64,000 nucleotides of DNA from an uncultured Nitrospiraceae bacterium. GTDB lineage: Bacteria; Nitrospirota; UBA9217. The position numbers and the translations under genes are program-made. Below the pieces are notes generated by a model. The model was not told where the DNA came from, made no database searches, and was given only the letters and a program-made list of their open reading frames with translations. This document shows, in pieces, positions 2,760-52,644 of this stretch; positions within the stretch are counted from its first letter, which is position 1; every line of letters begins with the position of its first letter. The stretch covers positions 5,179 through 69,178 of the forward strand of contig CAYPOT010000009.1 in the NCBI GenBank assembly GCA_964412455.1. Direction: 5' to 3'.

Positions 2760-4043
2760 ATGACGCTTATCTATTTTTTGATCGTGATCGGCATCCTCGT
2801 GTTCGTGCACGAGTTCGGCCATTTCATCATGGCGAAGCGGGCCGGCGTGCGGGTGGAGAAGTTCTCCCTCGGCATGGGACCCCGGTTGTTCGGCTATAAG
2901 AAGGGCGACACGGACTACATCATTTCGGCGCTGCCGCTCGGCGGGTACGTGAAGATGGCGGGCGAGAACCCCGACGAGGAACCCACGGGCGCGGCGGACG
3001 AATTCCAGTCCAAGACCATCTGGCAGCGGGCGAAGATCGCGGCGGCCGGTTCCGTGACCAACATCGTCCTCGCGTTCCTGCTGATGCCGCTCGTGTTCAT
3101 GATCGGCACCTATACGTTGGGATCTTCGAGGGTAGGGGGTGTGGTCAAGGGATCTCCTGCTGAGCAGGCAGGGTTTTTGGCGGGGGATACGATCGAACGG
3201 ATAAGCGGCAAAGTGGTCACTGAATGGGAAAAGGTGGATATGTTGATCGCTGTGAATCCCAATACGGAAATCACGGTGGTGATCGATCGTAACGGGGAAA
3301 AAAAGACATTGACGCTCACGCCTCAGTTGGATGCGGAACGCAATATCGGCACTGCGGGCATATACCCTTCATTGTCAGCTGAAGTGGGACGACTTCGCCC
3401 GGGGCTGCCTGCGGAAAAGGCGGGCCTTAAGGTTAACGATAAGATCCTGGCTGTGGACGGCACGACCGTCTATTATTGGAATCAATTCTCCACCATGGTG
3501 AAAGAGAGCGGGGGAAAAAAGCTTTCCTTGCTGATCGAGCGGGAAGGAAAGCGCATGACGACTGCAATTACCCCGATCATGGACAGCGGCCGGCATGTCA
3601 TCGGCGTTGAGCCGTATGTTCGCCTGGATTTCAAGAAATATGGATTTTGGGAGTCCCTTCAGCTTGGTTTCATGAAGACCCTGGAGATCGCGGACCTGAC
3701 GTTCATCACCCTGAAGAAGCTGTTCTCGTTCTCGATCTCCATCAAGGCGCTGGGCGGGCCGGTGATGATCGCCCAGATGTCAGGACAGGCGGCGGCAGCG
3801 GGCCTGTCGGCCTTTATCGCGCTTATGGCCACCATCAGCCTGTCTCTCGGCATGCTGAACCTGCTGCCCATTCCGGTGCTGGACGGCGGCCTGCTCGTGT
3901 TTCTCGCCATCGAAGCGGTCCGGAAGAAACCCCTGAGCCAGAAGGTCATGGAAGTTTCCCAGAGCATCGGCGCCGCTTTGCTGATCACCCTGATCGCGGT
4001 GGTGTCGTACAACGATGTGATGAGGCTGTTCTTCAGTAAATAG
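2760..4043 (+). CDS. rseP: RIP (site-2) zinc metalloprotease RseP
   Basis: HEFGHF zinc motif in the first TM, central PDZ-like segments, and the C-terminal LNLLPIPVLDGG motif. Confidence 0.9.
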   Translation: MTLIYFLIVIGILVFVHEFGHFIMAKRAGVRVEKFSLGMGPRLFGYKKGDTDYIISALPLGGYVKMAGENPDEEPTGAADEFQSKTIWQRAKIAAAGSVTNIVLAFLLMPLVFMIGTYTLGSSRVGGVVKGSPAEQAGFLAGDTIERISGKVVTEWEKVDMLIAVNPNTEITVVIDRNGEKKTLTLTPQLDAERNIGTAGIYPSLSAEVGRLRPGLPAEKAGLKVNDKILAVDGTTVYYWNQFSTMVKESGGKKLSLLIEREGKRMTTAITPIMDSGRHVIGVEPYVRLDFKKYGFWESLQLGFMKTLEIADLTFITLKKLFSFSISIKALGGPVMIAQMSGQAAAAGLSAFIALMATISLSLGMLNLLPIPVLDGGLLVFLAIEAVRKKPLSQKVMEVSQSIGAALLITLIAVVSYNDVMRLFFSK

Positions 4044-4164: not shown

Positions 4165-5262
4165 ATGAACCTTATCCCCCGCAAGAAGACTCGTTCGATC
4201 GCCCTCGGCAGCGTGAAGATCGGCTGGGGCTCGCCGGTTGCCGTCCAGTCCATGTGCAACACGGACACTCGGGACGCCGACACCACGCTCGTGCAGATCC
4301 GGCGTCTTGAAGCAGCCGGTTGCGAGATCGTCCGGCTTGCCGTGCCCGACACCGAGGCCGCGAAGGCCATCGGGAAGATCCGGAAAGGTACGACCGTTCC
4401 GCTCGTGGCCGATATCCACTTCGATCACCGGCTTGCCCTCGAAGCGGTGAAGCAGGGCGTTGATGGCCTTCGCATCAATCCGGGCAATATCGGAGGCAGG
4501 GACAAGGTCGCGGAAGTAGTGAGCGCCTGCAAGGACCGGCGTCTTCCCATTCGCATCGGGGTGAACGCGGGATCGCTCGAGAAGCACCTGCTAGAAAAGT
4601 ACGGCCACCCCACTCCTGAGGCTATCGTCGAGAGCGCGTTCGGCCATATTCGCATTCTTGAGGACCTGGATTACCGGGAGATCAAGGTCTCGCTCAAGGC
4701 GTCGGACGTTCTGACCACGGTCGAGGCCTACCGCCTGTTTGCGAAGCAGTCGGACTATCCTCTGCACATCGGCATCTCCGAGGCGGGCACGATCCACTCC
4801 GGCACGATCAAGTCGAGCGTCGGCCTCGGGATCCTGCTCGCCGAGGGCATCGGCGACACCATGCGGGTGTCGCTTACCGCGGACCCGGTCGAAGAGGTCC
4901 GCGTGGCCTACGGGATCCTTAAATCGCTCAAGATCCGTGAGCGGGGAGTGAATCTTATCTCCTGCCCCACCTGCGGCAGGACCGAGATCAATATCATCGG
5001 CCTTGCCGAAGAAGTGGAGCGCAGGCTCGGCCATATCACCGAGCCGCTCACCGTCGCGGTCATGGGCTGCGTGGTGAACGGGCCGGGCGAAGCGCGCGAG
5101 GCCGACATCGGCATCGCCGGCGGCAAAGGCGTGGGCATGCTGTTCAAGCACGGCGAGATCGTGAAAAGGTTCGACGAGAAAGAACTGGCGGATGTGCTGG
5201 TGAGGGAAGTTGAGAAGATGGTTCAATTACGTTCAAAGTTCAAGGTTCAAAGTTCAAAGTAG
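4165..5262 (+). CDS. ispG: 4-hydroxy-3-methylbut-2-enyl diphosphate synthase
   Basis: GcpE-family sequence throughout, with Fe-S cysteines in ISCPTCGRT and MGCVVNGPGE. The last ~13 codons are encoded by a GTTCAAAG-type tandem repeat. Confidence 0.92.
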   Translation: MNLIPRKKTRSIALGSVKIGWGSPVAVQSMCNTDTRDADTTLVQIRRLEAAGCEIVRLAVPDTEAAKAIGKIRKGTTVPLVADIHFDHRLALEAVKQGVDGLRINPGNIGGRDKVAEVVSACKDRRLPIRIGVNAGSLEKHLLEKYGHPTPEAIVESAFGHIRILEDLDYREIKVSLKASDVLTTVEAYRLFAKQSDYPLHIGISEAGTIHSGTIKSSVGLGILLAEGIGDTMRVSLTADPVEEVRVAYGILKSLKIRERGVNLISCPTCGRTEINIIGLAEEVERRLGHITEPLTVAVMGCVVNGPGEAREADIGIAGGKGVGMLFKHGEIVKRFDEKELADVLVREVEKMVQLRSKFKVQSSK

Positions 5263-5374
5263 GACTTCATTTTGCCGGATACCATTCCTTTTCGTTTGCA
5301 ATCAACGGGGTTCTCTGATAAATTAACACTATCGGCTGTAGGAGCGGTTAAAGCGCGCAGCCTGGAGGCATGCG

Positions 5375-5665
5375 ATGTCGACTATATCGATCAAAGGTGA
5401 TTCTTCGGAAACAGTCAGGTCACTCCTGACAAGTGCGTTGGACAGGGAAAAGCGCATTATTACTGACAGTTTGCGAACAACACGCGATAAGGTGAATGCC
5501 CTGGCAATAATGCTGTCGGTTGATGTTGAAAAGCTGATGCGGGGCGAGATCGAGCATGCTGAATCAAAGGACATGCAATTAATCGAACTCGAAGGGGAAG
5601 TCGAACTGCTCAGGCATCTTGAGACAGAGCTCAGGGAACTTGAAACCCTTGAAATATGCAGATAA
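5375..5665 (+). CDS. Small coiled-coil hypothetical protein (possible partner of the downstream TumE-like gene)
   Basis: 96-aa ORF preceded by GGAGG. Its end overlaps the next gene by 10 nt. No family recognised. Confidence 0.4.
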   Translation: MSTISIKGDSSETVRSLLTSALDREKRIITDSLRTTRDKVNALAIMLSVDVEKLMRGEIEHAESKDMQLIELEGEVELLRHLETELRELETLEICR

Positions 5666-6051
5666 AGGCATACCTTGACGGAATTCTCGATACACTTGCC
5701 GCGAATCCCCATGTGGAAGCCCAAAGTATTTCCTTTGAAGAACGCCCTCCCGATGCAGTCATCATAACAGGTATTGTCGCATTCATCGACGGCTCAAAAC
5801 TGCATATCAAAGAATTCCTGGTCCTGAAACCCGCTCATGCGGCTATCCTCAAGTATGGCTATCACTACGTGTCGAGTAAAGGTGAATTGATCTTCCGATA
5901 CGACAATGCGCTCGATCCCAAGGCGAGGGGATTGTCGACCTATCCGGAGCACAAACATGCTCCCGACGGATTAAAAGAAACCCGAAGACCATCGTGGCAG
6001 GATATTTTACGAGAAATTTCGAGCTCAATAGGCCAGTACATCAGGAAATAA
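5656..6051 (+). CDS. TumE-like (DUF6516) toxin-family protein
   Basis: YGYHY...FRYDNALDP...STYPEHKH resembles the RYDNAPHH..FPHHKH signature I recall for the TumE/DUF6516 family. Confidence 0.5.
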   Translation: MQIKAYLDGILDTLAANPHVEAQSISFEERPPDAVIITGIVAFIDGSKLHIKEFLVLKPAHAAILKYGYHYVSSKGELIFRYDNALDPKARGLSTYPEHKHAPDGLKETRRPSWQDILREISSSIGQYIRK

Positions 6052-6069
6052 AACATTTTCGGAGACCCC

Positions 6070-6171
6070 ATGCGTTATTCCCGTTTGTTCATCCCCACCC
6101 TGAAAGAAGCCCCGACCGACGCCGAGGCGGTCTCGCACAAGCTCATGGTGCGCGCGGGCTTCGTGCGATAA
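6070..6171 (+). pseudogene. Truncated duplicate of the proS 5' end (33 codons then TAA)
   Basis: [33 protein letters not shown] parallels the proS start at 13824. Segment 6112-6155 is identical to 13866-13909. Confidence 0.9.
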
Positions 6172-6210
6172 TCGGCGCCCTGCGGCAGCGTATGATGTAA
6201 ATAAATTTGA

Positions 6211-6239
6211 TTGACAATGGTTAGTATGAATATTATAAT
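6211..6239 (+). promoter_or_regulatory. Consensus sigma70-type promoter upstream of the AbrB/PIN pair
   Basis: TTGACA (6211-6216), 17-nt spacer, TATAAT (6234-6239). Confidence 0.6.
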
Positions 6240-6288
6240 AAAGTATGATATATATTTTTGAATCGTATCTGATGGCAGGAGCGGGACA

Positions 6289-6534
6289 ATGAAAACGCTG
6301 ATGAGCGAGAGGGGTCAGGTGGTGATCCCGAAAAAGATCCGGGAGACCATTCACCTCCATAAAGGCGACGAACTGGAGATCGAGGTGCGCGATGAGACGA
6401 TCGTGCTGAAGCCGCTTCGCAGGTTCAAGGCCAAAAAATGGCAGGATTACGCCGGAATCGGTGAAGGCATCGTGGCTGCCCATCTCAAGGACAAGAAGAA
6501 GGAAAAAGCCGATGAAGATGCTTATTCTCGATAG
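6289..6534 (+). CDS. AbrB/SpoVT-family antitoxin (VapB/MazE-like)
   Basis: N-terminal SERGQVVIPKKIRETIHLHKGDELEIEV swapped-hairpin motif. Overlaps the downstream PIN gene. Confidence 0.8.
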   Translation: MKTLMSERGQVVIPKKIRETIHLHKGDELEIEVRDETIVLKPLRRFKAKKWQDYAGIGEGIVAAHLKDKKKEKADEDAYSR

Positions 6535-6931
6535 CTACGCACTGCTCTGTCTTTTCGATAAAAAGCGCAGGACGGAGAAGGAAGCGATAATGTCCTATCT
6601 TGAGGATGCGGGCAAAGGCAAGGCGAAGCTTTATATCAGCAAGATCAACGAAGGTGAAGTGTTTTATAAGCTCTATAAGTATTTCGGCGCCGAGATCGCG
6701 ACCGGATTCAGGGCAGACCTCAAGCGGGGAATGTTCCCCCTGCATGTCGTGCCCGTGAATGATAAACGAATAGACGAAGCGTCCGTGATTAAGGCGAAAT
6801 ATCCGGTATCCTACGCCGACGCATTTTGCATAGAACTTGCCAGGGACATGAACCTGCCTGTGGTGACAGGTGATCCGGAATTCGAGGCTGTGAAGGACCT
6901 GATAAAGCTACAGCCGCTTGCGGAACAGTAG
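6512..6931 (+). CDS. PIN-domain toxin (VapC-like)
   Basis: MKMLILDSYAL (first acidic residue) ... EGEV ... YADAFCIELA ... VTGDPEF, a typical PIN acidic-residue pattern. Start taken at ATG 6512, overlapping the antitoxin. Confidence 0.75.
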   Translation: MKMLILDSYALLCLFDKKRRTEKEAIMSYLEDAGKGKAKLYISKINEGEVFYKLYKYFGAEIATGFRADLKRGMFPLHVVPVNDKRIDEASVIKAKYPVSYADAFCIELARDMNLPVVTGDPEFEAVKDLIKLQPLAEQ

Positions 6932-6950
6932 CTCCTATGCGGACTTTCCG

Positions 6951-7046
6951 CACGGCGAGATCGTGAAGAAGTCCGATGAGAAGGAATTGGCCGATGTGCT
7001 GGTGAGGGAAGTGGAAGATTTAGTTCGGCAAAAAAATAAAAGGTAA
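6951..7046 (+). pseudogene. Remnant of a diverged ispG 3' end (31 codons plus stop)
   Basis: HGEIVKKSDEKELADVLVREVEDLVRQKNKR* parallels the native ispG C-terminus HGEIVKRFDEKELADVLVREVEKMV (5147-5225). Confidence 0.85.
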
Positions 7047-7115
7047 GATCGTATTTCGTTTGGTGTCTCTTACATTGATAAAATGCACCAATGTTGTTTA
7101 AGAGAGATTTCAATT

Positions 7116-8435
7116 ATGAAAAAATATTATGATCCTTTATATGGTGAAATCAAGCTAGATGAGCTTGTCTTTAGTATTATTGAAAAATGTCCTGAAATAA
7201 AGCGGCTCAGATATGTCGGCCTCATGAATTTCAAATCTTTGAGCATGCTACCTTTAACAAGCATCACGAGGTTAGAACATACAATTGGTCTATCGTACCT
7301 AGCACAATTATTTGCCGACTCAAATTCTTTTTCAAAAACATCGAGGAACAATTTAATCGTCGCTTCACTTTTTCATGATGTTAACAGCGCGTCATTTGGA
7401 CATGCTATTGAATGGGCAGTGGATCGCTATACGCCTTATAACCACGAAAAGGAAACCGAGTGGTTAGCTGATAAAGAAAAGACCTCGTTTTTAAACAAAA
7501 AGCCAATATTTATTGAGCAATATGGTGTGACAAGATATGATTTGGAAAAAGAATATGGATTTAACTTGACTAAGGCTTATCAAATTATTAACGGAGTGGA
7601 TTCATTTACAATTAACAATAATGGAATAGATCTAGATAACGTTGACAACGTTTTTCGTATGGGTTTATACATGGGGCTGGAACCTTTCGAAAAGGGATGC
7701 CCTGTAAGGTTAGCCAAGAGTTTAAAGATAGTTGACGGGCGTGATAATTTTGTTATTAAAGAGGAAGCTATTGACTTAGTGATGACATGGTATCAATTAA
7801 GAGCGAATATTTACGGGAGATTTATTTACTCCGAAGAGTATATGGGTTATGAATATCTTTTATTTCAACTTATTGCTGAGTATGCAAAACACGTTGAGTT
7901 TGATAGCATAAGAAATCTTTTTAATTACACGGATGAAAATCTATTGTGGCATTTTTATGATAAGAAGAATTCGCTCCCGTCGGTAAGTAATATAGCGAGC
8001 ATGTTATTATTGCATGATATTCCTAAGACATACGCAATATTGCGCTCAGATGAATTTGACAAAAAAGAAAAACTAATTAAACCTGGAATTCTAGATGCTA
8101 TTGCCCAAAGTGTGAGTGAGTATTTGCACAATTCTAAAGAGGTTTCGAACACATCATCAGGGGAAATATTTTTGCATTTAACGACAGACGATAGAAAAAC
8201 CAACAGACAAATTGACTTTTATGTAGAGAAGAGTGGAGAAGTTGTTAAGCAATCTATAGGTTTCGATAAGAGATACATTGTTATTGGTGTATTGGGGAAA
8301 AAAAATCTGTCAGAAAAAGTAAAAACGCTAATCGCAGAAAAAACCATTGAAAAGCTTAGAAGCAGTAATTTGGGTAATTTCGATAATATTGAATTCGTCG
8401 AATCAAATGCGTTAAAGCAAAAAGTGCTATTCTAG
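7116..8435 (+). CDS. HD-domain phosphohydrolase, SAMHD1/dGTPase-like
   Basis: YDPLYGEIKL...EIKRLRYVGL...TRLEHTIGLSYLA...LFHDVNSASFGH parallels the dNTP-triphosphohydrolase N-terminal layout (H...HD). The region is AT-rich. Confidence 0.65.
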   Translation: MKKYYDPLYGEIKLDELVFSIIEKCPEIKRLRYVGLMNFKSLSMLPLTSITRLEHTIGLSYLAQLFADSNSFSKTSRNNLIVASLFHDVNSASFGHAIEWAVDRYTPYNHEKETEWLADKEKTSFLNKKPIFIEQYGVTRYDLEKEYGFNLTKAYQIINGVDSFTINNNGIDLDNVDNVFRMGLYMGLEPFEKGCPVRLAKSLKIVDGRDNFVIKEEAIDLVMTWYQLRANIYGRFIYSEEYMGYEYLLFQLIAEYAKHVEFDSIRNLFNYTDENLLWHFYDKKNSLPSVSNIASMLLLHDIPKTYAILRSDEFDKKEKLIKPGILDAIAQSVSEYLHNSKEVSNTSSGEIFLHLTTDDRKTNRQIDFYVEKSGEVVKQSIGFDKRYIVIGVLGKKNLSEKVKTLIAEKTIEKLRSSNLGNFDNIEFVESNALKQKVLF

Positions 8436-8451
8436 CCGCACCTTTTAATTT

Positions 8452-9660
8452 ATGGAAAAGAAAAAAGATATTTCGCATTTTGATTTGCTTGATTGGAATT
8501 TTACTAGAGAAGATTCGAGACTCTACTTGCACAATTTCTGTTGGTATCCTTCAAGATTCATCCCAATAATCCCAGCCCACTTAATTCAAGCCCTAAGCAA
8601 GACCAATGAAACTGTGCTGGATCCGTTTTGCGGAATAGGGACTACGTTAGTCGAGGCTTTGAAGCAGAGGCGAAATGCAATTGGCGTTGATTTAAATCCA
8701 ATCGCATGCTTTGTCTCTAAAACTAAAGGAAAAATATTGACAGGTCATAAAGTAAACCTGTCTCTAATTGAAGGCTTGTTAGAAAACCTGGCGCCGTTGA
8801 GTGGTGATGATCTATTCACAAAAAAACGCACAGGTAGAGGTCATTATAATTTACGGGAGAAGTCAATCCCAAATTACGCTGTCAATGTGGAATGGTTTCA
8901 TCCCGAAACTTTAAAAATGCTTTCGCATATATACTATTCTGTCGAAGATCTTCCGAGAGGACTTACGAGGGATATATGCAAAATATTTTTTATTTCAATT
9001 CTCATGCAGTCCTCCGGGCACGATTTGAATAAGCCATACACTTATTATGCAGACAATGTGAAGCCTAAAAAAGAAAAATTGATTAAAGACGCCTACAAAC
9101 TATATGTGCAAAAATTGGATAAATTTTTATGTGAATATAAGCTCATAGAGTTACCCGAGAAAAACAGGCTGGATTTTGCCGTATACAACGAAGATGCGAG
9201 AGGGTTAGAAGGTTTGGTGGATAAAAAAGTTGACCTTATAGTTACTTCGCCTCCGTATTTAAATGTTACTGACTATACAACTGGCTTTAGGTTAGCTCAT
9301 CTGTGGTATAGCTTTCAAAAGGATATGCGTATTGAGGACATTAAAAGAAGAGAAATTGGTGCTCGATACAGGCGGAAGTCACGTAACAGTTTAAATGAAT
9401 ATGTCGGGGATATGCAGTCAGTCCTTTGCAAAATGGACAGCGTTTTAAAGACCAATGGGTATCTTTGCTTGATTCTTGGTGAATCACAAAAATACTCCAA
9501 GATTGTGAATAAGATAATAATGGACTTTATGTCGAACGAATTGCGGTTAGAATATATTGATTCTTTTAGTCGTGAGATAATAAAAAAATTCTTCATTCAT
9601 CCAAATGGTGGGGGTGTCAGTACAGAAGAAATTATTATTTACAGAAAAAAAAGAAAGTGA
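8452..9660 (+). CDS. DNA methyltransferase (N6-A or N4-C type, SPPY catalytic motif)
   Basis: AdoMet motif VLDPFCGIGTT (about 8620-8646) and catalytic VTSPPYLNVTDY (9244-9258). Motif I precedes motif IV by about 200 aa. Confidence 0.8.
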   Translation: MEKKKDISHFDLLDWNFTREDSRLYLHNFCWYPSRFIPIIPAHLIQALSKTNETVLDPFCGIGTTLVEALKQRRNAIGVDLNPIACFVSKTKGKILTGHKVNLSLIEGLLENLAPLSGDDLFTKKRTGRGHYNLREKSIPNYAVNVEWFHPETLKMLSHIYYSVEDLPRGLTRDICKIFFISILMQSSGHDLNKPYTYYADNVKPKKEKLIKDAYKLYVQKLDKFLCEYKLIELPEKNRLDFAVYNEDARGLEGLVDKKVDLIVTSPPYLNVTDYTTGFRLAHLWYSFQKDMRIEDIKRREIGARYRRKSRNSLNEYVGDMQSVLCKMDSVLKTNGYLCLILGESQKYSKIVNKIIMDFMSNELRLEYIDSFSREIIKKFFIHPNGGGVSTEEIIIYRKKRK

Positions 9661-10766
9661 GGTGTGTCTGCGCTATGGAAAATCACATCGTCATGATGCC
9701 TAATATGATAATACCATATGGCTACGAAATAGTGCCAATTATGGCTTATCCTGCTGGTTTTATCTACAGATTTAGATTTGATGAGGAATGGCTTTCAGAT
9801 AGGATAAAAGCCGATGTGTCTTCATTGTCAGCGAAAAAGGGTTATATCGTTTTCAGAGATCCAGAAAGCGCTACGTTTTACCCCATAAGGCATATCACAA
9901 TCAAGGTGGCGCAAAGAATAGGTAAATACTATTATTTTGAATATGAATTAAATGAAATATTTGACTTTGATTCTAACGAAACATGGAGGACAAAGCAAAT
10001 AACTCAATTTAATGACTCTTTTAAGAGTTTTCATGAATCAGAGTTTAAAGACAACATTCCTGGTAAAGATATGAAGCCCCTCGTATTTTTGACTAATTTT
10101 GCACCAACCATAAATAATGAACATGTCCAATTTACAAATCCATTGGAAAATGAGTTGGAGCGATGGGGAAATATAATTTCAATTATTAAAAATATAAAGT
10201 TTTATGAAAACGTAGAATTTATAAAAATCCTTGATATAGTGCCAATGAAAAAGCGAGACGAGGAAGTGCAAGTTAAAGAGAATTATTTATTTGTACAAGA
10301 AGACGGCGATTATAAGTTGAGGATATTTCAGCTTAAGCCTAAAGGATCGGTAGAAAGGATCGAACCGAAAGATATTGAAGTAAGATCAGACGACAAATAT
10401 ATTAGCGTCATAAGAAATAAACAACGCGCAGTAGGGAAGTATGATGTGCTAAGTTTCGTTTTCCGCGTGCATGCCGGCAGTGGAGGCCAGAGAAGTTATT
10501 TAGATGTTCTACATGCTCCCAAAACAGAAGCAGCCCAGTACATTGCGCCGACACTGTATCTTCCAGTAGCTATTCAAGGAAAAAGAAAGCTAATGGTTAT
10601 AAGAATTTTATTTGCCTTTGTCTTAGTCTCATTCTATCTTTTTCCTGAGGCTATAAGTTTCATATCTGATCACAGGATTGTGAAGGATTTTGCTATGGTC
10701 CTCTTCACTATTTCTGTGATAGATATTCTGAAAGAAATACGGGACCTGTTTAAGGCGAATAGATAA
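9657..10766 (+). CDS. Hypothetical protein with C-terminal double transmembrane anchor
   Basis: 369-aa ORF (alternative ATG at 9675). Overlaps the upstream stop by 4 nt and the downstream start by 1 nt. C-terminus has LMVIRILFAFVLVSFYLF and FAMVLFTISVIDIL hydrophobic helices. No family recognised. Confidence 0.6.
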   Translation: MRCVCAMENHIVMMPNMIIPYGYEIVPIMAYPAGFIYRFRFDEEWLSDRIKADVSSLSAKKGYIVFRDPESATFYPIRHITIKVAQRIGKYYYFEYELNEIFDFDSNETWRTKQITQFNDSFKSFHESEFKDNIPGKDMKPLVFLTNFAPTINNEHVQFTNPLENELERWGNIISIIKNIKFYENVEFIKILDIVPMKKRDEEVQVKENYLFVQEDGDYKLRIFQLKPKGSVERIEPKDIEVRSDDKYISVIRNKQRAVGKYDVLSFVFRVHAGSGGQRSYLDVLHAPKTEAAQYIAPTLYLPVAIQGKRKLMVIRILFAFVLVSFYLFPEAISFISDHRIVKDFAMVLFTISVIDILKEIRDLFKANR

Positions 10767-12907
10767 TGGTTATCGTTGGCCTAAACCTTGGTTCAACAGA
10801 ATTTAATAAGAAATTACACGACGGAGGCATCTGTATTGTTGTTGATGGTAAAGTAAAATTCGCAGTGGCTGAAGAGCGTATTTCGCGCAGAAAGCGCTCA
10901 GGCGGATTCAGGGAATCACTGGACTATGCTCTTTCTTGTTTGAATTTAGATAGGAGTAATATCGATCTTGTTGTTTATTCAAGCTGTTGTGAGAGTATTA
11001 ACAATAGCATTAACATCGCAGAATTACAGAATATAAAATCAATTCCCTGTGACCATCATCTATCTCACGCTTTAAGTGTGTATCTGACATCTCCTTATGA
11101 AAAGGCACTTATTGCCGTTTTAGACGCAGGAGGAAATCTTCTCGGTAATGACAACCATAGTGACTGGTGGCTTCATTCCCGAGAGCAGCAATCATACTAT
11201 GTCGCAGAAGGGAACAATGTCACGCTAATTGATAGAGATTTTATCTTACCTGAAGCAGCAGGCATAGGGGAAATATATCGTGCCTTTACATATTATCTTG
11301 GGTGGGAATCTTCTCGATTTGCAGGCAAGACCATGGCGCTTGCCGCATATGGAGATCCTGGTGCATTTAAAGGTAACAACATATTTGACTTGGACATAAA
11401 TGGGAACATACGCTCACATATAAAAAATAATCCGATAGAGCCCTTGTCTATGGTTGAGCAGTTACTCGATAGATATGGGAGAAAAAATGTGCCTCCTCGG
11501 AAAGATGGTCAACCGATTCTACAAGTGCATAGTGATCTTGCTCGCTGGATACAAAATGAAACGGAGGACATAGTAACCGCAAAACTTAACTATTTAATGC
11601 GTAAGACAGGCATTTCTAATCTTTGTTTGGCAGGAGGAGTTGCCTATAATTGCTCGATGGTTGGAAAGATAATGAATAATACTATGGCAAATAATGTTTT
11701 TCTCCAGCCGGCATCGGGTGATCAAGGTCAATGTCTTGGCAATGCCATGTTTGGATACACTCAAATTAGAAATGCTTGGATAAGAGTTAATCCATTCAAT
11801 CCATATCTAGGATGCGGTATTGAAATAAACCATGATACAATTCGAGGCGCGTTAAAGAGTAATAATCAGGTTACAATTAATGCCCCGCGTGATATAGCAG
11901 TAACAACTGCAAAATTACTCTCGCAAGGAGAAATAGTGGCGTGGTTCCAAGATCGGAGTGAATTCGGTCCTCGTGCCTTGGGCAATCGAAGTATTCTTGC
12001 AAACCCCTGTCTTTCGAAGAGTAAGGAGAAATTGAATTCAATAAAGGGTCGTGAAGACTTTATGCCTTTTGCTCCGACTGTTCTATACGAAAGTGCAAAA
12101 GACTATTTTGTGATTTCCGATGAATGTCCTTTTATGACTGCAGCAGTTAAGGTGCGCCCAAACGTCAGAGAAACAATACCGGCAGCTGTCCATGTGGACG
12201 GAACATCTAGAGTCCAAACATTGAGAAAAGAAAATAATCCGCTATTTTACGATTTGATACATGAATTCTACAAGTTGACAAAAGTGCCATTAATTATTAA
12301 TACTTCATTCAATGCAGCTGGTGAGCCTATTGTTGAAACACTTAATAATGCAATAGACACTTTTATGAAATTAGACATAAGATTTATGGTAGCTGGTTCG
12401 TTCCTTCTGGAAAAGCCATTGGTTAGAACATCTATGCCTAGTGTCAAAGATGCAGGTCGGTTGTTGGATATTGTATTTGGGGCGGATCTGATCGTCAACG
12501 AGACGGAATTAAGTGCGCTGCTTAGTGAGCGCTTTCCGGGAATTAAATCCTTTCCTAGAGATAAATTTTTGCTCAATGAAAAATTTATTAATTGGTTAAA
12601 AAACGGCAGAAAAACGACAACCATTAGGTATAAGAAAGTGGGTATAGATTTCCCAGTGGCGACATGTTTGCCGCTAATTCCGACAAAAGATTTTTCAAAA
12701 AATCGAGGTGAAGCGCCAGTTGGCTTTTTGAAAATAAGAAAATATATAATAAAAAAATATCGGGATCTTAATGAAACAGATGCTCGTAATGATGGATTTA
12801 AAACTCTAACGGAGCTAAGAAGTGTTCTTTTCGATATCTATGGTGCTATACAAGAAGATGACTATGTTTCTATATACTATGTTCAAATAAAAAATAATCC
12901 AAGTTAA
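10766..12907 (+). CDS. NodU/CmcH/TobZ-family carbamoyltransferase fused to a C-terminal ASCH-like domain
   Basis: DHHLSHA, LDAGGN, GGVAYNC, PASGDQG, FGPRALGNRSILANP, HVDGTSRVQT and INTSFNAAGEPIV blocks match the carbamoyltransferase family. The last ~115 aa (NWLKNGRKTTTIRYKK...DDYVSIYYV) resemble ASCH. Confidence 0.8.
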   Translation: MVIVGLNLGSTEFNKKLHDGGICIVVDGKVKFAVAEERISRRKRSGGFRESLDYALSCLNLDRSNIDLVVYSSCCESINNSINIAELQNIKSIPCDHHLSHALSVYLTSPYEKALIAVLDAGGNLLGNDNHSDWWLHSREQQSYYVAEGNNVTLIDRDFILPEAAGIGEIYRAFTYYLGWESSRFAGKTMALAAYGDPGAFKGNNIFDLDINGNIRSHIKNNPIEPLSMVEQLLDRYGRKNVPPRKDGQPILQVHSDLARWIQNETEDIVTAKLNYLMRKTGISNLCLAGGVAYNCSMVGKIMNNTMANNVFLQPASGDQGQCLGNAMFGYTQIRNAWIRVNPFNPYLGCGIEINHDTIRGALKSNNQVTINAPRDIAVTTAKLLSQGEIVAWFQDRSEFGPRALGNRSILANPCLSKSKEKLNSIKGREDFMPFAPTVLYESAKDYFVISDECPFMTAAVKVRPNVRETIPAAVHVDGTSRVQTLRKENNPLFYDLIHEFYKLTKVPLIINTSFNAAGEPIVETLNNAIDTFMKLDIRFMVAGSFLLEKPLVRTSMPSVKDAGRLLDIVFGADLIVNETELSALLSERFPGIKSFPRDKFLLNEKFINWLKNGRKTTTIRYKKVGIDFPVATCLPLIPTKDFSKNRGEAPVGFLKIRKYIIKKYRDLNETDARNDGFKTLTELRSVLFDIYGAIQEDDYVSIYYVQIKNNPS

Positions 12908-12939
12908 TTAGTTGCTCTGCTAAACGACAAAACACAAAA

Positions 12940-13782
12940 ATGACGCAATTTTTGAAAGACTTGCTGCGAAACTATGGGCTCTTGTACATAACGCTTACGC
13001 AGCTTTTGAGTGAGCGACCAGGAAACAAGTATGCTTCGCTGGACGAGTACTATCACAGTCTGGGCATGCAGACGCCTGATAACCCAATGTTTTACGTGCA
13101 TCCGAGCTCGGATGGCAAAACGCGCTACTTAGACGAGGGAGAGCACGATATTGAAGCGCGTGATGATGCGGGTAACAAGGTTGGAAAAGTAGTTGGCGTT
13201 TTGGAACTTCCGGAAGACGAATTCTATTTTTTTCAAGCATTCCGTCCTGGCATGTTCGATTTAGAAAAGGATCTTCCTTCATTTCTTTTTGAAATGGCAT
13301 TAATTTATGCTAATTCTCTATTTGAAAATTACATATCTAGCATTATTCGTCTCAGGTTTCAAAAACACCCAGAACTGATGGGTGTCAATAAACAAGTGAC
13401 TTATGGTCAAGTAATTAAGAGCAATTCGAAACAAGATGTCATCGAGCACCTGATTAATCGAGAAGTCCAACAATTGATGTATGAGCCTATCGGTGCAGTA
13501 TTGGAACGAATGCGAGCAAAATACGGATTTCGAGATCTAACCACGAAGTACGACGAGGAAATAATTTATCTGTCACTTATAAGAAATTGCGTTATGCATA
13601 ATTCTCGGAAGGTTGATTCTAAGCTTGCCACCAATAAACCTAAGCTAGTATTAGGCGAAAGATTGCCTGTTGAAAAGAGTCTCGTGGACACAGCAATTCA
13701 TACTTACCGAAAATTTTGCTATGAAGTTGATATCATGTTAGAAGCTATTGGATCACTCAAACAAACAAGTGAGCCTCTATGA
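12940..13782 (+). CDS. HEPN-motif protein (putative RNase effector)
   Basis: 280-aa ORF with an Rx4H motif, IRNCVMHN (13582-13599), in an alpha-helical C-terminal half. It is the last gene of the AT-rich operon. Confidence 0.5.
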   Translation: MTQFLKDLLRNYGLLYITLTQLLSERPGNKYASLDEYYHSLGMQTPDNPMFYVHPSSDGKTRYLDEGEHDIEARDDAGNKVGKVVGVLELPEDEFYFFQAFRPGMFDLEKDLPSFLFEMALIYANSLFENYISSIIRLRFQKHPELMGVNKQVTYGQVIKSNSKQDVIEHLINREVQQLMYEPIGAVLERMRAKYGFRDLTTKYDEEIIYLSLIRNCVMHNSRKVDSKLATNKPKLVLGERLPVEKSLVDTAIHTYRKFCYEVDIMLEAIGSLKQTSEPL

Positions 13783-13823
13783 GGAATGTCGGCATATAGA
13801 AATTGCATGCACAGGGGGTATTG

Positions 13824-15518
13824 ATGCGCTACTCGAAACTGTTCATTCCTACATTAAAAGAGGCGCCGACCGACGCCGAGGCGGTCTCGCACAAGCTCAT
13901 GGTGCGCGCCGGCTTCGTGCGCCAGCTCGCGGCGGGGCTCTATATCTACCTTCCGCTGGGCATCCGGGTGATGGAGAAGATCAACCGCATTATCCGCGAG
14001 GAAATGAACGCCATCGGCGGCCAGGAAGTGACCATGCCGGTGCTGAATCCCGCCGAGGTGTGGCAGCAGACCGGGCGGTGGGATGCCATCGGCGGCGAGA
14101 TGTTCCGTCTCAAGGACCGCGGCGGCAGGGACATGTGCCTGGCCATGACCCACGAGGAGACCATGACCTGGCTCGCGGCGCACGATATCCGTTCCTACCG
14201 GGAACTGCCCCAGATCTGGTACCAGGTGCAGACGAAATTACGGGACGAAGCGCGGCCCAAGAGCGGCGTACTCCGGACGCGCGAGTTCACCATGAAGGAC
14301 TCCTACAGCTTCGACGCCGATGAGGCCGGGCTCGACCGGTCCTATCAACTTCATCTCGAGGCCTACAAGAAGATCTACTCCCGCTGCGGAATTCGATTTC
14401 ACGTGGTCCAGAGCGACACGGGCATGATGGGCGGCAGCATGGCGCACGAGTACATGGCGCCTTCTCCGGCGGGCGAGGACGACGTGGCGCTCTGCGATGG
14501 CTGCGGGTACGCGGCGAACACGGAGCTCGCGCTGTCCGTGCCGAAGGCGGCTGCATCATCGAACGACAGTTACGAGGAGATCGCTACGCCGGAACGGCGA
14601 ACCATCGACGAGGTGACCCGCTTCCTGAAGGTCACGCCGGACCGTTTGCTCAAGTCCATCCTCGTCACGACCGACCAGGGACCGCTGCTGGCGCTGGTGC
14701 GCGGCGACCAGACCCTGCATGAGAAGAAGCTGGCCAAGCTTATCGGACCCCATCGGCCCGCGCAGAAGGACGAGGTGAAGGCCGCTCTCGGCGTGCCTGT
14801 CGGATTCATCGGCCCCATGGGCCACAAGATCCGGAAGATCGCTGACCTGGTGCTGAAACAGGGGACCCACATCGCCGGCGCGAACAAGGAAGGCTTCCAT
14901 GTGAAGGGTGTCTCCGCGGACAAGCATTTCAGCGACGCCGAGTTCGCGGACATCCACACCGCGGCGGAAGGCGACGCCTGCGCCCAGTGCGGCAAGCCGC
15001 TGCGCATCGAGCGGGTCATCGAGATCGGGAACATCTTCAAGCTGGGCACCAAGTACTCCGTCCCGCTCAAGGCGAACTACCTTGACGAACAGGGGAATGA
15101 GAAGCCCATCATCATGGGGAGCTACGGCATCGGCCCGGCGCGCATCGCCGCCGCGGCCATCGAGCAGGGGAACGACGAGAACGGCATCATCTGGCCGGCG
15201 GCGATCGCGCCCTACCAGGTCCTGATCGTGCCGGTGAACGTGAAAGACCAGCGCTCCATGGACGTGGCCGAGGAGATGCACACGGCCCTTGAGGAAAAAG
15301 GGTTCGAGGCGCTCATGGACGACCGCGACGAACGGGCCGGCGTCAAGTTCAAGGACGCGGACCTTATCGGCATTCCGTACCGGGTCGTCATCGGCGAGAA
15401 GAACCTGAAGGAAGACCTGGTGGAGCTTAAGGAGCGGAAGACCGGGGTCGTGGTCAAGGTGAAGGTCGCCGACGCGGTGGCGGCGATCGTGAAGAAGATC
15501 GTGATGGAGAACGCGTAA
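13824..15518 (+). CDS. proS: Prolyl-tRNA synthetase
   Basis: Class II aaRS motifs (REFTMKDSYSF; GSYGIGPARI) with ProRS-type sequence throughout. Start at ATG 13824 ([15 protein letters not shown]). Confidence 0.93.
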   Translation: MRYSKLFIPTLKEAPTDAEAVSHKLMVRAGFVRQLAAGLYIYLPLGIRVMEKINRIIREEMNAIGGQEVTMPVLNPAEVWQQTGRWDAIGGEMFRLKDRGGRDMCLAMTHEETMTWLAAHDIRSYRELPQIWYQVQTKLRDEARPKSGVLRTREFTMKDSYSFDADEAGLDRSYQLHLEAYKKIYSRCGIRFHVVQSDTGMMGGSMAHEYMAPSPAGEDDVALCDGCGYAANTELALSVPKAAASSNDSYEEIATPERRTIDEVTRFLKVTPDRLLKSILVTTDQGPLLALVRGDQTLHEKKLAKLIGPHRPAQKDEVKAALGVPVGFIGPMGHKIRKIADLVLKQGTHIAGANKEGFHVKGVSADKHFSDAEFADIHTAAEGDACAQCGKPLRIERVIEIGNIFKLGTKYSVPLKANYLDEQGNEKPIIMGSYGIGPARIAAAAIEQGNDENGIIWPAAIAPYQVLIVPVNVKDQRSMDVAEEMHTALEEKGFEALMDDRDERAGVKFKDADLIGIPYRVVIGEKNLKEDLVELKERKTGVVVKVKVADAVAAIVKKIVMENA

Positions 15519-15519
15519 T

Positions 15520-15578
15520 TGCAGGGGAAACCCTATGTGGTTGCCCTGATCCGGGCGGCCACGCAGGGCCGCCCCTAC
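15520..15578. repeat. REP-like element family A, copy 2
   Basis: GCAGGGGAAACCCTATGTGGTTGCCCTGATCCGGGCGGCCACGCAGGGCCGCCCCTAC, immediately after the proS stop. Confidence 0.85.
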
Positions 15579-34049: not shown

Positions 34050-34148
34050 TGCTGCCTCTCGGTTGTACGTATATCGTCAGATCTATTTACTGAATATCAT
34101 GCATTGCGGATTTCGGATTCCGGAATGAAGACCGTTCATACCGTTGTC

Positions 34149-34213
34149 GTAGGGGCAACCCTATGTGGTTGCCCTCATTCGGCGTTCGGGCGGCCACGCA
34201 GGGCCGCCCCTAC
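34149..34213. repeat. REP-like element family A, copy 3
   Basis: GTAGGGGCAACCCTATGTGGTTGCCC...GGGCGGCCACGCAGGGCCGCCCCTAC. Overlaps the last ~13 codons of the small-subunit ORF. Confidence 0.85.
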
Positions 34214-52532: not shown

Positions 52533-52586
52533 GTCGATTGCGGATTGCGGAGTGCGGAACGAGAACAGCCGATCCTGCGGTAAACC

Positions 52587-52644
52587 GTAGGGGCAACCCC
52601 ATGTGGTTGCCCCCGGGCGGGCGGCCACGCAGGACCGCCCCTAC
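52587..52644. repeat. REP-like element family A, copy 4
   Basis: GTAGGGGCAACCCCATGTGGTTGCCCCCGGGCGGGCGGCCACGCAGGACCGCCCCTAC. Confidence 0.85.

Follow-up and report, generated by a model that had tools for sequence, protein, structure and literature searches.

Stacked recombination scars between ispG and proS point to integrase-free growth of an insertion hotspot in an uncultured Nitrospirota bacterium

Introduction

DNA that shares homology with a recipient chromosome on one side only can be incorporated by circularisation and a single crossover or by homology-facilitated illegitimate recombination (HFIR), both of which are documented (PMC3240628, PMC5361080); experiments in Acinetobacter, S. 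pneumoniae, P. stutzeri and E. coli have demonstrated one or the other (PMC3240628; references in PMC5361080). Sequential displacement in the orphan immunity arrays of the V. cholerae type VI secretion system (T6SS) and in the orphan 3' modules of Rhs and contact-dependent inhibition (CDI) loci has been explained in a similar way (PMC5361080). On a larger scale, P. aeruginosa cDHS1 and cDHS2 are defence hotspots flanked by core genes, for which transfer by flank homology has been proposed; homologous recombination mediated by flanks is normally traceless (PMC10250203). Many genomic and defence islands flanked by core genes carry no mobility genes, and their build-up is mostly inferred.

Here we describe the gap between the core genes ispG and proS in a 64-kb stretch of DNA from an uncultured Nitrospirota bacterium (GenBank assembly GCA_964412455.1, contig CAYPOT010000009.1, positions 5,179 to 69,178; hereafter the window). 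Coordinates are positions in the window, features lie on the + strand with the exception of one strandless joint, and relatives were found by IspG-based scans of genome and metagenome collections. An open reading frame (ORF) map and family scans give the following order from 5' to 3': intact ispG (GcpE; 4165..5262), which is the left flanking core gene, a TumE-type toxin-antitoxin (TA) pair, a 5' stub of proS, an AbrB/PIN pair, a 3' stub of ispG, an AT-rich operon, and intact proS (13824..15518), the right flanking core gene. The same order of genes and fragments had been given by an earlier, sequence-only reading of this DNA. We consider it probable that the gap is an integrase-free recombination hotspot, and that the window represents a haplotype with the TumE-type module beside proS (X type) fused to a haplotype with the AbrB/PIN module and its ispG stub (Y' type), in at least two events.

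The locus resembles HFIR in combining one homologous exchange in a conserved flank with one non-homologous joint, in having no recombinase gene, and in the addition of foreign DNA beside an anchor, of which short duplications are possible. It differs in that events are inferred from natural haplotypes of an uncultured lineage, that the anchoring sequences belong to the ends of two essential genes, and that events are stacked. As in the T6SS and Rhs arrays, a conserved anchor lets new modules enter at a fixed position, old modules are kept and pushed aside, and truncated remnants record the order; unlike those arrays, the modules are TA pairs and a methyltransferase cassette instead of effector-immunity pairs, and the remnants come from housekeeping genes on both sides instead of from a polymorphic toxin. 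Conserved flanking core genes, variable occupancy and content, low-GC cargo and many sites without a mobility gene are shared with cDHS1 and cDHS2, whereas the ispG-proS locus is much smaller (0-8.5 kb), usually empty, lacks a tRNA or tmRNA flank and bears explicit recombination scars. Integrative elements with attL and attR in tRNA or protein-coding genes are also alike in that the insert lies between direct repeats of a gene end and brings the sequence that regenerates the target gene. Here, unlike in such elements, there is no integrase, the repeat is conserved coding sequence, and the 'element' is a composite of separate modules.

Results and Discussion

The proS stub and its tie to the TumA/TumE module

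Module X (5287..6069; PF20126, PADLOC PDC-M44B) consists of a promoter-like region, a TumA-like gene, tumE and an 18-nt spacer. The TumE toxin gene (5656-6051) matches PF20126 with 69.4 bits against a cut-off of 23.4, and a small ORF upstream of it (96 aa, 5375-5665), which overlaps it by 10 nt and had no family match in the family scans, is the candidate TumA-like antitoxin gene. The score against the NCBIfam equivalog model of TumE is below cut-off (52 versus 90 bits), and we regard the protein as a predicted member of the family, not as the characterised equivalog.

The spacer is followed by the proS 5' stub (6070..6171), 33 codons ending in TAA, of which 98 nt (6070-6167) are homologous to intact proS. 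A BLAST comparison within the window aligned 6070-6167 with 13824-13921 at 85% identity (E = 5e-28). The proS homology segment is repeated directly on either side of a 7.75-kb insert, as is characteristic of Campbell-type integration. Differences between them are distributed unevenly: nt 1-42 hold 14, which fall in 11 codons (10 synonymous plus R5K), and nt 43-98 hold one. Over the stub as a whole, 12 codons differ synonymously and one non-synonymously. The longest exact run is 44 nt (6112-6155 = 13866-13909). Both this core and the roughly one dozen, mostly synonymous differences in the first 42 nt had been described in the sequence-only reading, and the alignment bears them out. That reading had also contrasted GC-rich, host-like codons in the stub with AT-richer ones in intact proS, a contrast that did not hold: over codons 1-14, third-position GC (GC3) amounts to 9/14 for the stub and 8/14 for intact proS, with changes in both directions (CGT>CGC and TAT>TAC versus ATC>ATT and CCC>CCT). 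Codon GC3 was thus uninformative as a mark of the native proS copy.

Comparison with relatives was more revealing. TumE homologues of 85-88% identity are encoded 20 nt upstream of intact proS in six contigs (L171-L176; JGI, ENA, NCBI, Logan), and wherever module X occurs in relatives, it lies directly upstream of proS. Window positions 5287-6167 align with L171-L176 in one unbroken high-scoring segment pair (HSP) of 84% identity, which runs from the TumA promoter region through proS nt 98. Because this segment is collinear with contigs in which the junction is intact, the proS stub is the cut end of a natural X-proS unit. Allele states agree with this origin. Nucleotides 1-42 of the stub match the X-linked alleles of L171-L176 at 36-38 of 42 positions, compared with 29-30 for the intact copy, and the stub is X-allele-like at nine of the ten informative sites in this interval. 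Intact proS instead matches L178 and L179, two contigs with an AbrB/PIN module and an ispG stub, at 37/42, and its nt 1-24 are their signature (TAC TCG AAA CTG ... ATT). Haplotype association therefore separates the copies, with the stub assigned to the TumE-linked allele and the intact gene to the allele linked to AbrB/PIN and the ispG stub.

The 44-nt core carries less information than had been assumed. The sequence-only reading placed a crossover within it. L008, which lacks the duplication, matches the core at 100% identity too, and proS nt 43-98 are conserved clade-wide (0-11 differences in 56 nt). Core identity therefore fails to locate the crossover and, since L008 is the same there, was set aside as proof of the crossover point. 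Identity of the two copies over nt 43-98 may reflect conservation alone.

The ispG stub and its tie to the AbrB/PIN module

Module Y (6176..6939), delimited by family matches and relatives, comprises a promoter, an AbrB/MazE gene and a PIN/VapC gene. A perfect sigma-70 promoter (TTGACA-17-TATAAT, 6211-6239) precedes the antitoxin gene (6289-6534; PF04014, 48 bits), which overlaps the downstream toxin gene (6512-6931; PF01850, 51 bits) as in VapBC-type toxin-antitoxin systems. Module Y DNA is 80-83% identical to that of L008, L177 and L178-L180, in each case inside the ispG-proS gap, and in all of these the PIN homologue (86-89% identity) is encoded directly downstream of ispG.

Downstream of the PIN gene, a filler recognised by comparison with L178-L180 (CGGACTTTCC, 6940-6949; joint J2) leads into the ispG 3' stub (6950-7046), which aligns with intact ispG and spans 97 nt, or 31 codons plus stop. 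BLAST within the window aligned 6950-7026 with 5148-5224 at 83% identity (E = 8e-19), in agreement with the earlier description of a remnant diverged from the native ispG 3' end; seven codons differ synonymously and four non-synonymously. The junction between module Y and the stub, GTAGCTCCTATGCGGACTTTCC followed by GCACGGCGAGATCGTGAAG, is identical over 41 nt in the window, L178 (ENA), L179 (JGI) and L180 (Logan), and window positions 6209-7016 align with these three contigs in one contiguous HSP of 82.6% identity. Their order is ispG, module Y, ispG stub, approximately 880 nt with a 77-aa ORF, and intact proS, with neither operon nor proS stub. Because L178-L180 share the junction of the ispG stub and have neither of the other two features, the stub is an older scar that belongs to the AbrB/PIN module; it was in place before the operon came in and before the proS stub formed. 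L008 and L177 carry module Y without a stub, and both forms, Y and Y', thus circulate.

Near its 3' end, the intact ispG of L179 changes to an L008-type tail (EEVEKIVNERKKK and stop) approximately 45 nt before the stop codon, while the stub retains the other tail. A switch of this kind is expected from a crossover inside the duplicated segment and would fit arrival of module Y with a replacement ispG 3' end. The match between the window ispG and that of every relative stops at approximately 5218-5222, and relatives have other, variable tails. The tail of the window's intact ispG (5223-5262, VQLRSKFKVQSSK and stop) is unique to this genome and contains four tandem GTTCAA(A/G)G units (GTTCAAAG-type repeats).

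These junctions bear directly on the history put forward in the sequence-only reading, in which a single circle carried the ispG 3' end together with the operon. In its strict form, one circle, cut out of the locus of another strain, bore the AbrB/PIN pair, the operon and the ends of both flanking genes (ispG 3' and proS 5'); it recombined by one crossover in the 44-nt core, and both stubs arose in that event. With A for ispG, B for proS and Z for the operon module, the observed order A-X-B'-Y-'A-Z-B is what a crossover in proS by a circle [Y-'A-Z-B'] would yield, and the sharp shift from 14 differences in nt 1-42 to one in nt 43-98 accords with it, as does a weak mosaic signal in the stub (Fisher p = 0.045). 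The Y-'A junction, however, recurs base for base in L178-L180, without Z or a proS stub; because it is present in contigs that lack Z, the ispG stub is no circle end and is not tied to the operon. Excision from a simple ispG-Z-proS locus would moreover put B' beside 'A, without Y between them, and the core is no less identical in the uninserted L008. A reciprocal crossover also predicts different allele types in the two copies over nt 43-98, whereas both are Y-type at the only two informative sites there and no reciprocal pattern is seen. We consider this single-event history improbable. An interim model of our own, with two one-sided events on an ispG-Y-proS ancestor and co-arrival of the ispG stub and Z, was refuted by the same Z-less junction in L178-L180.

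Reconstruction of the locus

Judged from the haplotypes compared, the gap exists in several states according to lineage: nothing (most lineages), X near proS, Y near ispG, Y' (Y plus the 97-nt ispG stub), or other contents. Its three cassettes in the window were acquired independently. Since the differences between stubs and intact genes are mainly synonymous, the stubs are foreign alleles, which evolved as working genes in other genomes. Only one junction is specific to the window genome when it is compared with relatives. This is J1 (6168..6175), an illegitimate joint at which filler ATAATCGG connects proS nt +98 to the spacer found between ispG and Y; the X-proS and Y-ispG-stub junctions both occur naturally in relatives.

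In the fusion that we favour, the left part (ispG, X and proS nt 1-98) would derive from an X-type locus, and the right part (spacer, Y, ispG stub, Z and proS) from a Y'-type locus with Z in its variable slot. The proposed history has three steps. First, module Y with a new ispG 3' end would have entered a recipient, displacing 97 nt of native ispG and making J2, which is shared with L178-L180. Second, Z would have filled the variable slot between the ispG stub and proS. Third, the X-type left part would have been joined to the Y'-type right part by one homologous exchange, of RecA type and in a flanking essential gene, and one illegitimate join, J1. Only products that regenerate intact ispG and intact proS would survive; for this reason a short stub would remain after every event, and new cargo would join the old instead of replacing it.

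Two routes could accomplish the third step. In route (i), a circularised [Y-stub-Z-proS 5'] molecule would cross over in the conserved proS nt 43-98 of an ispG-X-proS recipient; as a variant, the same DNA would enter this recipient in linear form by HFIR. In route (ii), a linear [ispG-X-proS 1-98] fragment would anchor in ispG and join illegitimately upstream of Y in an ispG-Y-stub-Z-proS recipient. The X signature of the stub and the L178/L179 signature of intact proS are predicted by both routes. The locus has the configuration characteristic of HFIR, with one end in homology and the other at a novel joint without extended homology. Y, ispG stub, cargo and proS form a contiguous natural arrangement in L178 and L179; a donor with Z in that position was not found among the relatives. 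Two mechanisms are viable for the last step, and crossover in proS by circularised [AbrB/PIN-ispG stub-operon-proS 5'] is one of them. To this extent the Campbell-type integration of the sequence-only reading stands, as does its proposal of integrase-free recombination through flanking gene ends; at least two events, and not one, are needed.

Stubs of similar length (98 and 97 nt) might also suggest in-situ tandem duplication of a segment from ispG -97 to proS +98, which would create the joint between B' and 'A in a single step and be followed by divergence and separate insertions of X, Y and Z. The copies, however, differ by 15-17%, mostly synonymously, as is typical of functional alleles of different genomes and not of pseudogene decay, and comparison with other genomes shows the two stubs to be collinear with two different natural modules. 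Three extra insertions would be needed as well, one of them exactly at the joint. The synonymous pattern of differences and the collinearity of the stubs with separate natural modules led us to reject tandem duplication, which we regard as extremely unlikely.

Several points weigh against the fusion as reconstructed here. Among the relatives we found neither an ispG-Y-stub-Z-proS haplotype (Z without X) nor a minimal ispG-X-proS haplotype; because neither parental haplotype was found and no homologue of the Z carbamoyltransferase exceeded 55% identity, both parents are inferred. The reconstruction provides no route for entry of Z into the slot. J1 and J2 are fillers of 8-10 nt between unrelated sequences, and since relatives are 10-20% diverged, the joints are approximate. 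In the comparison of alleles, neither route predicts the same Y-type states in both proS copies at nt 43-98 unless, for example, conservation, subsequent gene conversion or a parent of mosaic origin is assumed as well. Finally, an assembly artefact is unlikely on evidence that consists of assembled contigs, not reads, and this holds above all for linkage across the 44-nt core, where the alternative to the integrated form would be an empty site with a 7,754-bp circle.

Gap occupancy in relatives

Synteny of rseP, ispG and proS is widespread, and empty gaps leave 8-194 nt between aligned gene ends. Within the close clade (IspG identity of 76% or more), empty gaps number 12 and occupied gaps seven, the latter with at least five different contents. 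The empty gaps (L053, L009, L010, L011, L089, L090, L091, L093, L094, L096, L097 and L098) measure 55-150 nt between aligned ends. Occupied gaps contain AbrB/PIN (L008 and L177, with a partial copy in L088), AbrB/PIN plus more DNA (L178/L179), a lipoprotein and an MNT/HEPN pair (L092), a membrane protein (L095), or seven genes of which the last are TumA/TumE (L171/L172). In more distant taxa, HicB, an AAA-ATPase and other cargo occupy the ispG-proS gap. The gap is accordingly an insertion hotspot flanked by core genes. The sequence-only reading had called it a hotspot and had proposed comparing the locus across related genomes, with conserved fragments and no empty site as the contrary outcome; empty sites, 12 in number, and alternative cargo were both found.

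Cargo in L171 (4783-8010) and L092 (11049-13016) includes an AhpC/TSA peroxiredoxin, a DUF559 Vsr-like endonuclease, an MNT/HEPN pair and CsgG/Lcl_C-type lipoproteins, the last of which occur in both gaps.

The flanking genes are themselves mosaic. In rseP (3120-3700), identity to L008 is 90-97% in the 5' and 3' parts but only 59-75% in the middle, where identity to L089 is 79-88%. In ispG (4165-5213), the 5' half is nearest to L008 and the 3' end nearest to L088 and L089. In a sliding-window comparison with L008 and L089, proS was mosaic as well. The pattern in these three genes points to frequent homologous exchange among lineages of the clade. As a test of donor-recipient polarity, sliding-window identity of ispG and proS was discarded, for it gave clade-wide mosaicism only and no polarity.

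Our searches for an integration system were negative. No integrase or recombinase was detected in any ORF of 5263-13823 with Pfam, NCBIfam, PHROGs or PADLOC, and precomputed Pfam matches of the flanking genes called in L003 and L007, which lie upstream of the PIN gene and downstream of proS within approximately 10 kb of the island, include no recombinase family. The locus has no tRNA or Rfam elements, and there are no direct or inverted repeats of at least 7 nt at the borders of X, Y and Z. The remark in the sequence-only reading that no integrase is visible is borne out by these scans, which also give no tRNA or att-type flanking repeats. These results bear on the alternative of a site-specific integrative island, in which the 5' end of proS would hold a 44-nt att core recognised by a tyrosine or serine recombinase and the element would bring its own proS 5' end as a substitute. 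The 7.75-kb insert does lie between exact direct repeats of 44 nt, with the target gene restored, and two proteins of the Z region (unk3 and unk5, described below) have no family assignment and might be such an enzyme. Apart from the missing recombinase match, unk5 is HEPN-like, and unk3 belongs to a cassette found elsewhere without association with proS. Further evidence against an island is that none of nine other occupied ispG-proS gaps has stubs or att-like repeats, that the insert is a mosaic of modules occurring separately in relatives, and that the 44-nt core is part of the normal, conserved coding sequence of proS and is the same in the uninserted L008, with no tRNA. An integrative island is very unlikely.

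Soundness of the assembly

A 68.9-kb MEGAHIT k141 contig (ENA ERZ27247837) matches the window at 99.99% identity, and a second long contig has the same arrangement. Logan contigs from ERR3094292 and ERR3094302 reproduce the locus in parts: L001 and L002 cover the left part up to the 44-nt core, and L005 (= window 6126-8252) and L006 (= 6126-8019) are 100% identical across J1 and J2 into the HD gene of the operon. These contigs break only inside the core, because a k=31 graph must break there. J1 and J2 were assembled identically in ERZ27247837, ERR3094292 and ERR3094302, and J2 alone in ERZ27247817.

A metagenome chimera would require that co-occurring strains with different gap contents were mis-joined through shared proS or ispG segments. 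Related strains are present in the sample set (L172 and L178 come from sibling ENA assemblies), Logan contigs do stop in the 44-nt core, and the sibling contig L004 has an unrelated tail, all of which could be taken in favour of such a chimera. J1 and J2, however, are novel sequences and not repeat-mediated joins, they are identical in several assemblies, and the k=141 contig crosses the core with distinguishing single-nucleotide polymorphisms (SNPs) on either side; the arrangement is, in addition, present in two long contigs. A chimeric window is thus highly unlikely.

The contig with the unrelated tail, L004 (ENA ERZ27247817 k141_933479), equals window 6269-8498 and then continues into an unrelated asparagine-rich ORF on the minus strand (L004 2231-2518). 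Divergence begins 46 nt into the methyltransferase gene, and the tail probably reflects chimerism at the contig end and not variation between strains.

The AT-rich operon

Module Z (7047..13823), as delimited by the ORF map and GC profile, contains five co-oriented genes (7083-13782) in an operon of 6.7 kb. Its GC content is 32-43%, compared with 46-52% for the two TA pairs and 60-66% for the flanks. The first gene (7083-8435) encodes a SAMHD1-like HD protein (PDB sequence match, E = 4e-7), and the second (8452-9660) an N6/N4 DNA methyltransferase identified by family scan. The third, unk3 (9657-10766), encodes a 369-aa protein with no family match, whose C-terminal approximately 60 residues are hydrophobic as judged by eye from the translation. 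It is followed by a gene for a NodU-type carbamoyltransferase-ASCH fusion (10766-12907; family scan) and by unk5 (12940-13782), which encodes a HEPN-like protein of 280 aa recognised by the RNxxxH motif of its family.

The first four genes (7083-12907) form a cassette that occurs elsewhere in the same order with 48-60% amino acid identity (L168 6410-12133, L169 303-6026, L170 957-6722). In these unrelated contigs the cassette has approximately 36% GC with flanks of 48-58% GC, and one copy adjoins a Type ISP restriction enzyme; the fifth gene is no member of the cassette elsewhere. Because the closest homologue of the Z carbamoyltransferase is only 55% identical, the Z donor is unsampled. Apart from the methyltransferase, no component of the cassette matched a PADLOC (2.0) model, and a literature search for a carbamoyltransferase-ASCH cassette as a defence system returned nothing relevant. 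We regard the cassette as a candidate for a new system of defence or DNA modification.

The unk5 family comprises approximately 500 representatives at E<1e-3, among which R215 and H220 are invariant and N216 near-invariant, as in the HEPN-type RNxxxH motif, and two relatives weakly match HEPN_RiboL-PSP. The protein itself had no Pfam match, a PDB sequence search gave nothing meaningful, and an AlphaFold model built without an alignment had a pLDDT of 51. The unk5 protein is probably a stand-alone HEPN RNase resembling those of abortive infection (Abi) systems.

A GC-rich palindromic repeat of approximately 57 nt (GTAGGGGCAACCCTATGTGGTTGCCC...GGGCGGCCACGCAGGGCCGCCCCTAC), REP/MITE-like in appearance, occurs at 1286-1342, 15523-15578, 34148-34213 and 52583-52644. 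One copy lies directly 3' of the proS stop codon, and none lies within the gap.

Conclusions

As a hotspot flanked by core genes and built by homologous and illegitimate recombination, the ispG-proS gap is of a known kind, with scars that are here unusually legible. Two stubs with datable junctions, together with relatives that keep the separate haplotypes, render the order of island assembly readable. The locus involves no new principle and provides a natural example of how a hotspot grows in uncultured lineages.

A bolder and rather unlikely extension is that short conserved ispG and proS ends carried by cassettes act as portable homology arms, providing mobility without an integrase. If this were true, any fragment or circle with a cassette and an arm would insert at the same locus of any relative through host RecA alone. 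Addiction to the TA pairs would block replacement, the locus would grow by addition, and such cassettes would constitute a class of integrase-free, homology-armed mobile DNA. The AT-rich four-gene cassette is a separate lead for the discovery of defence systems.

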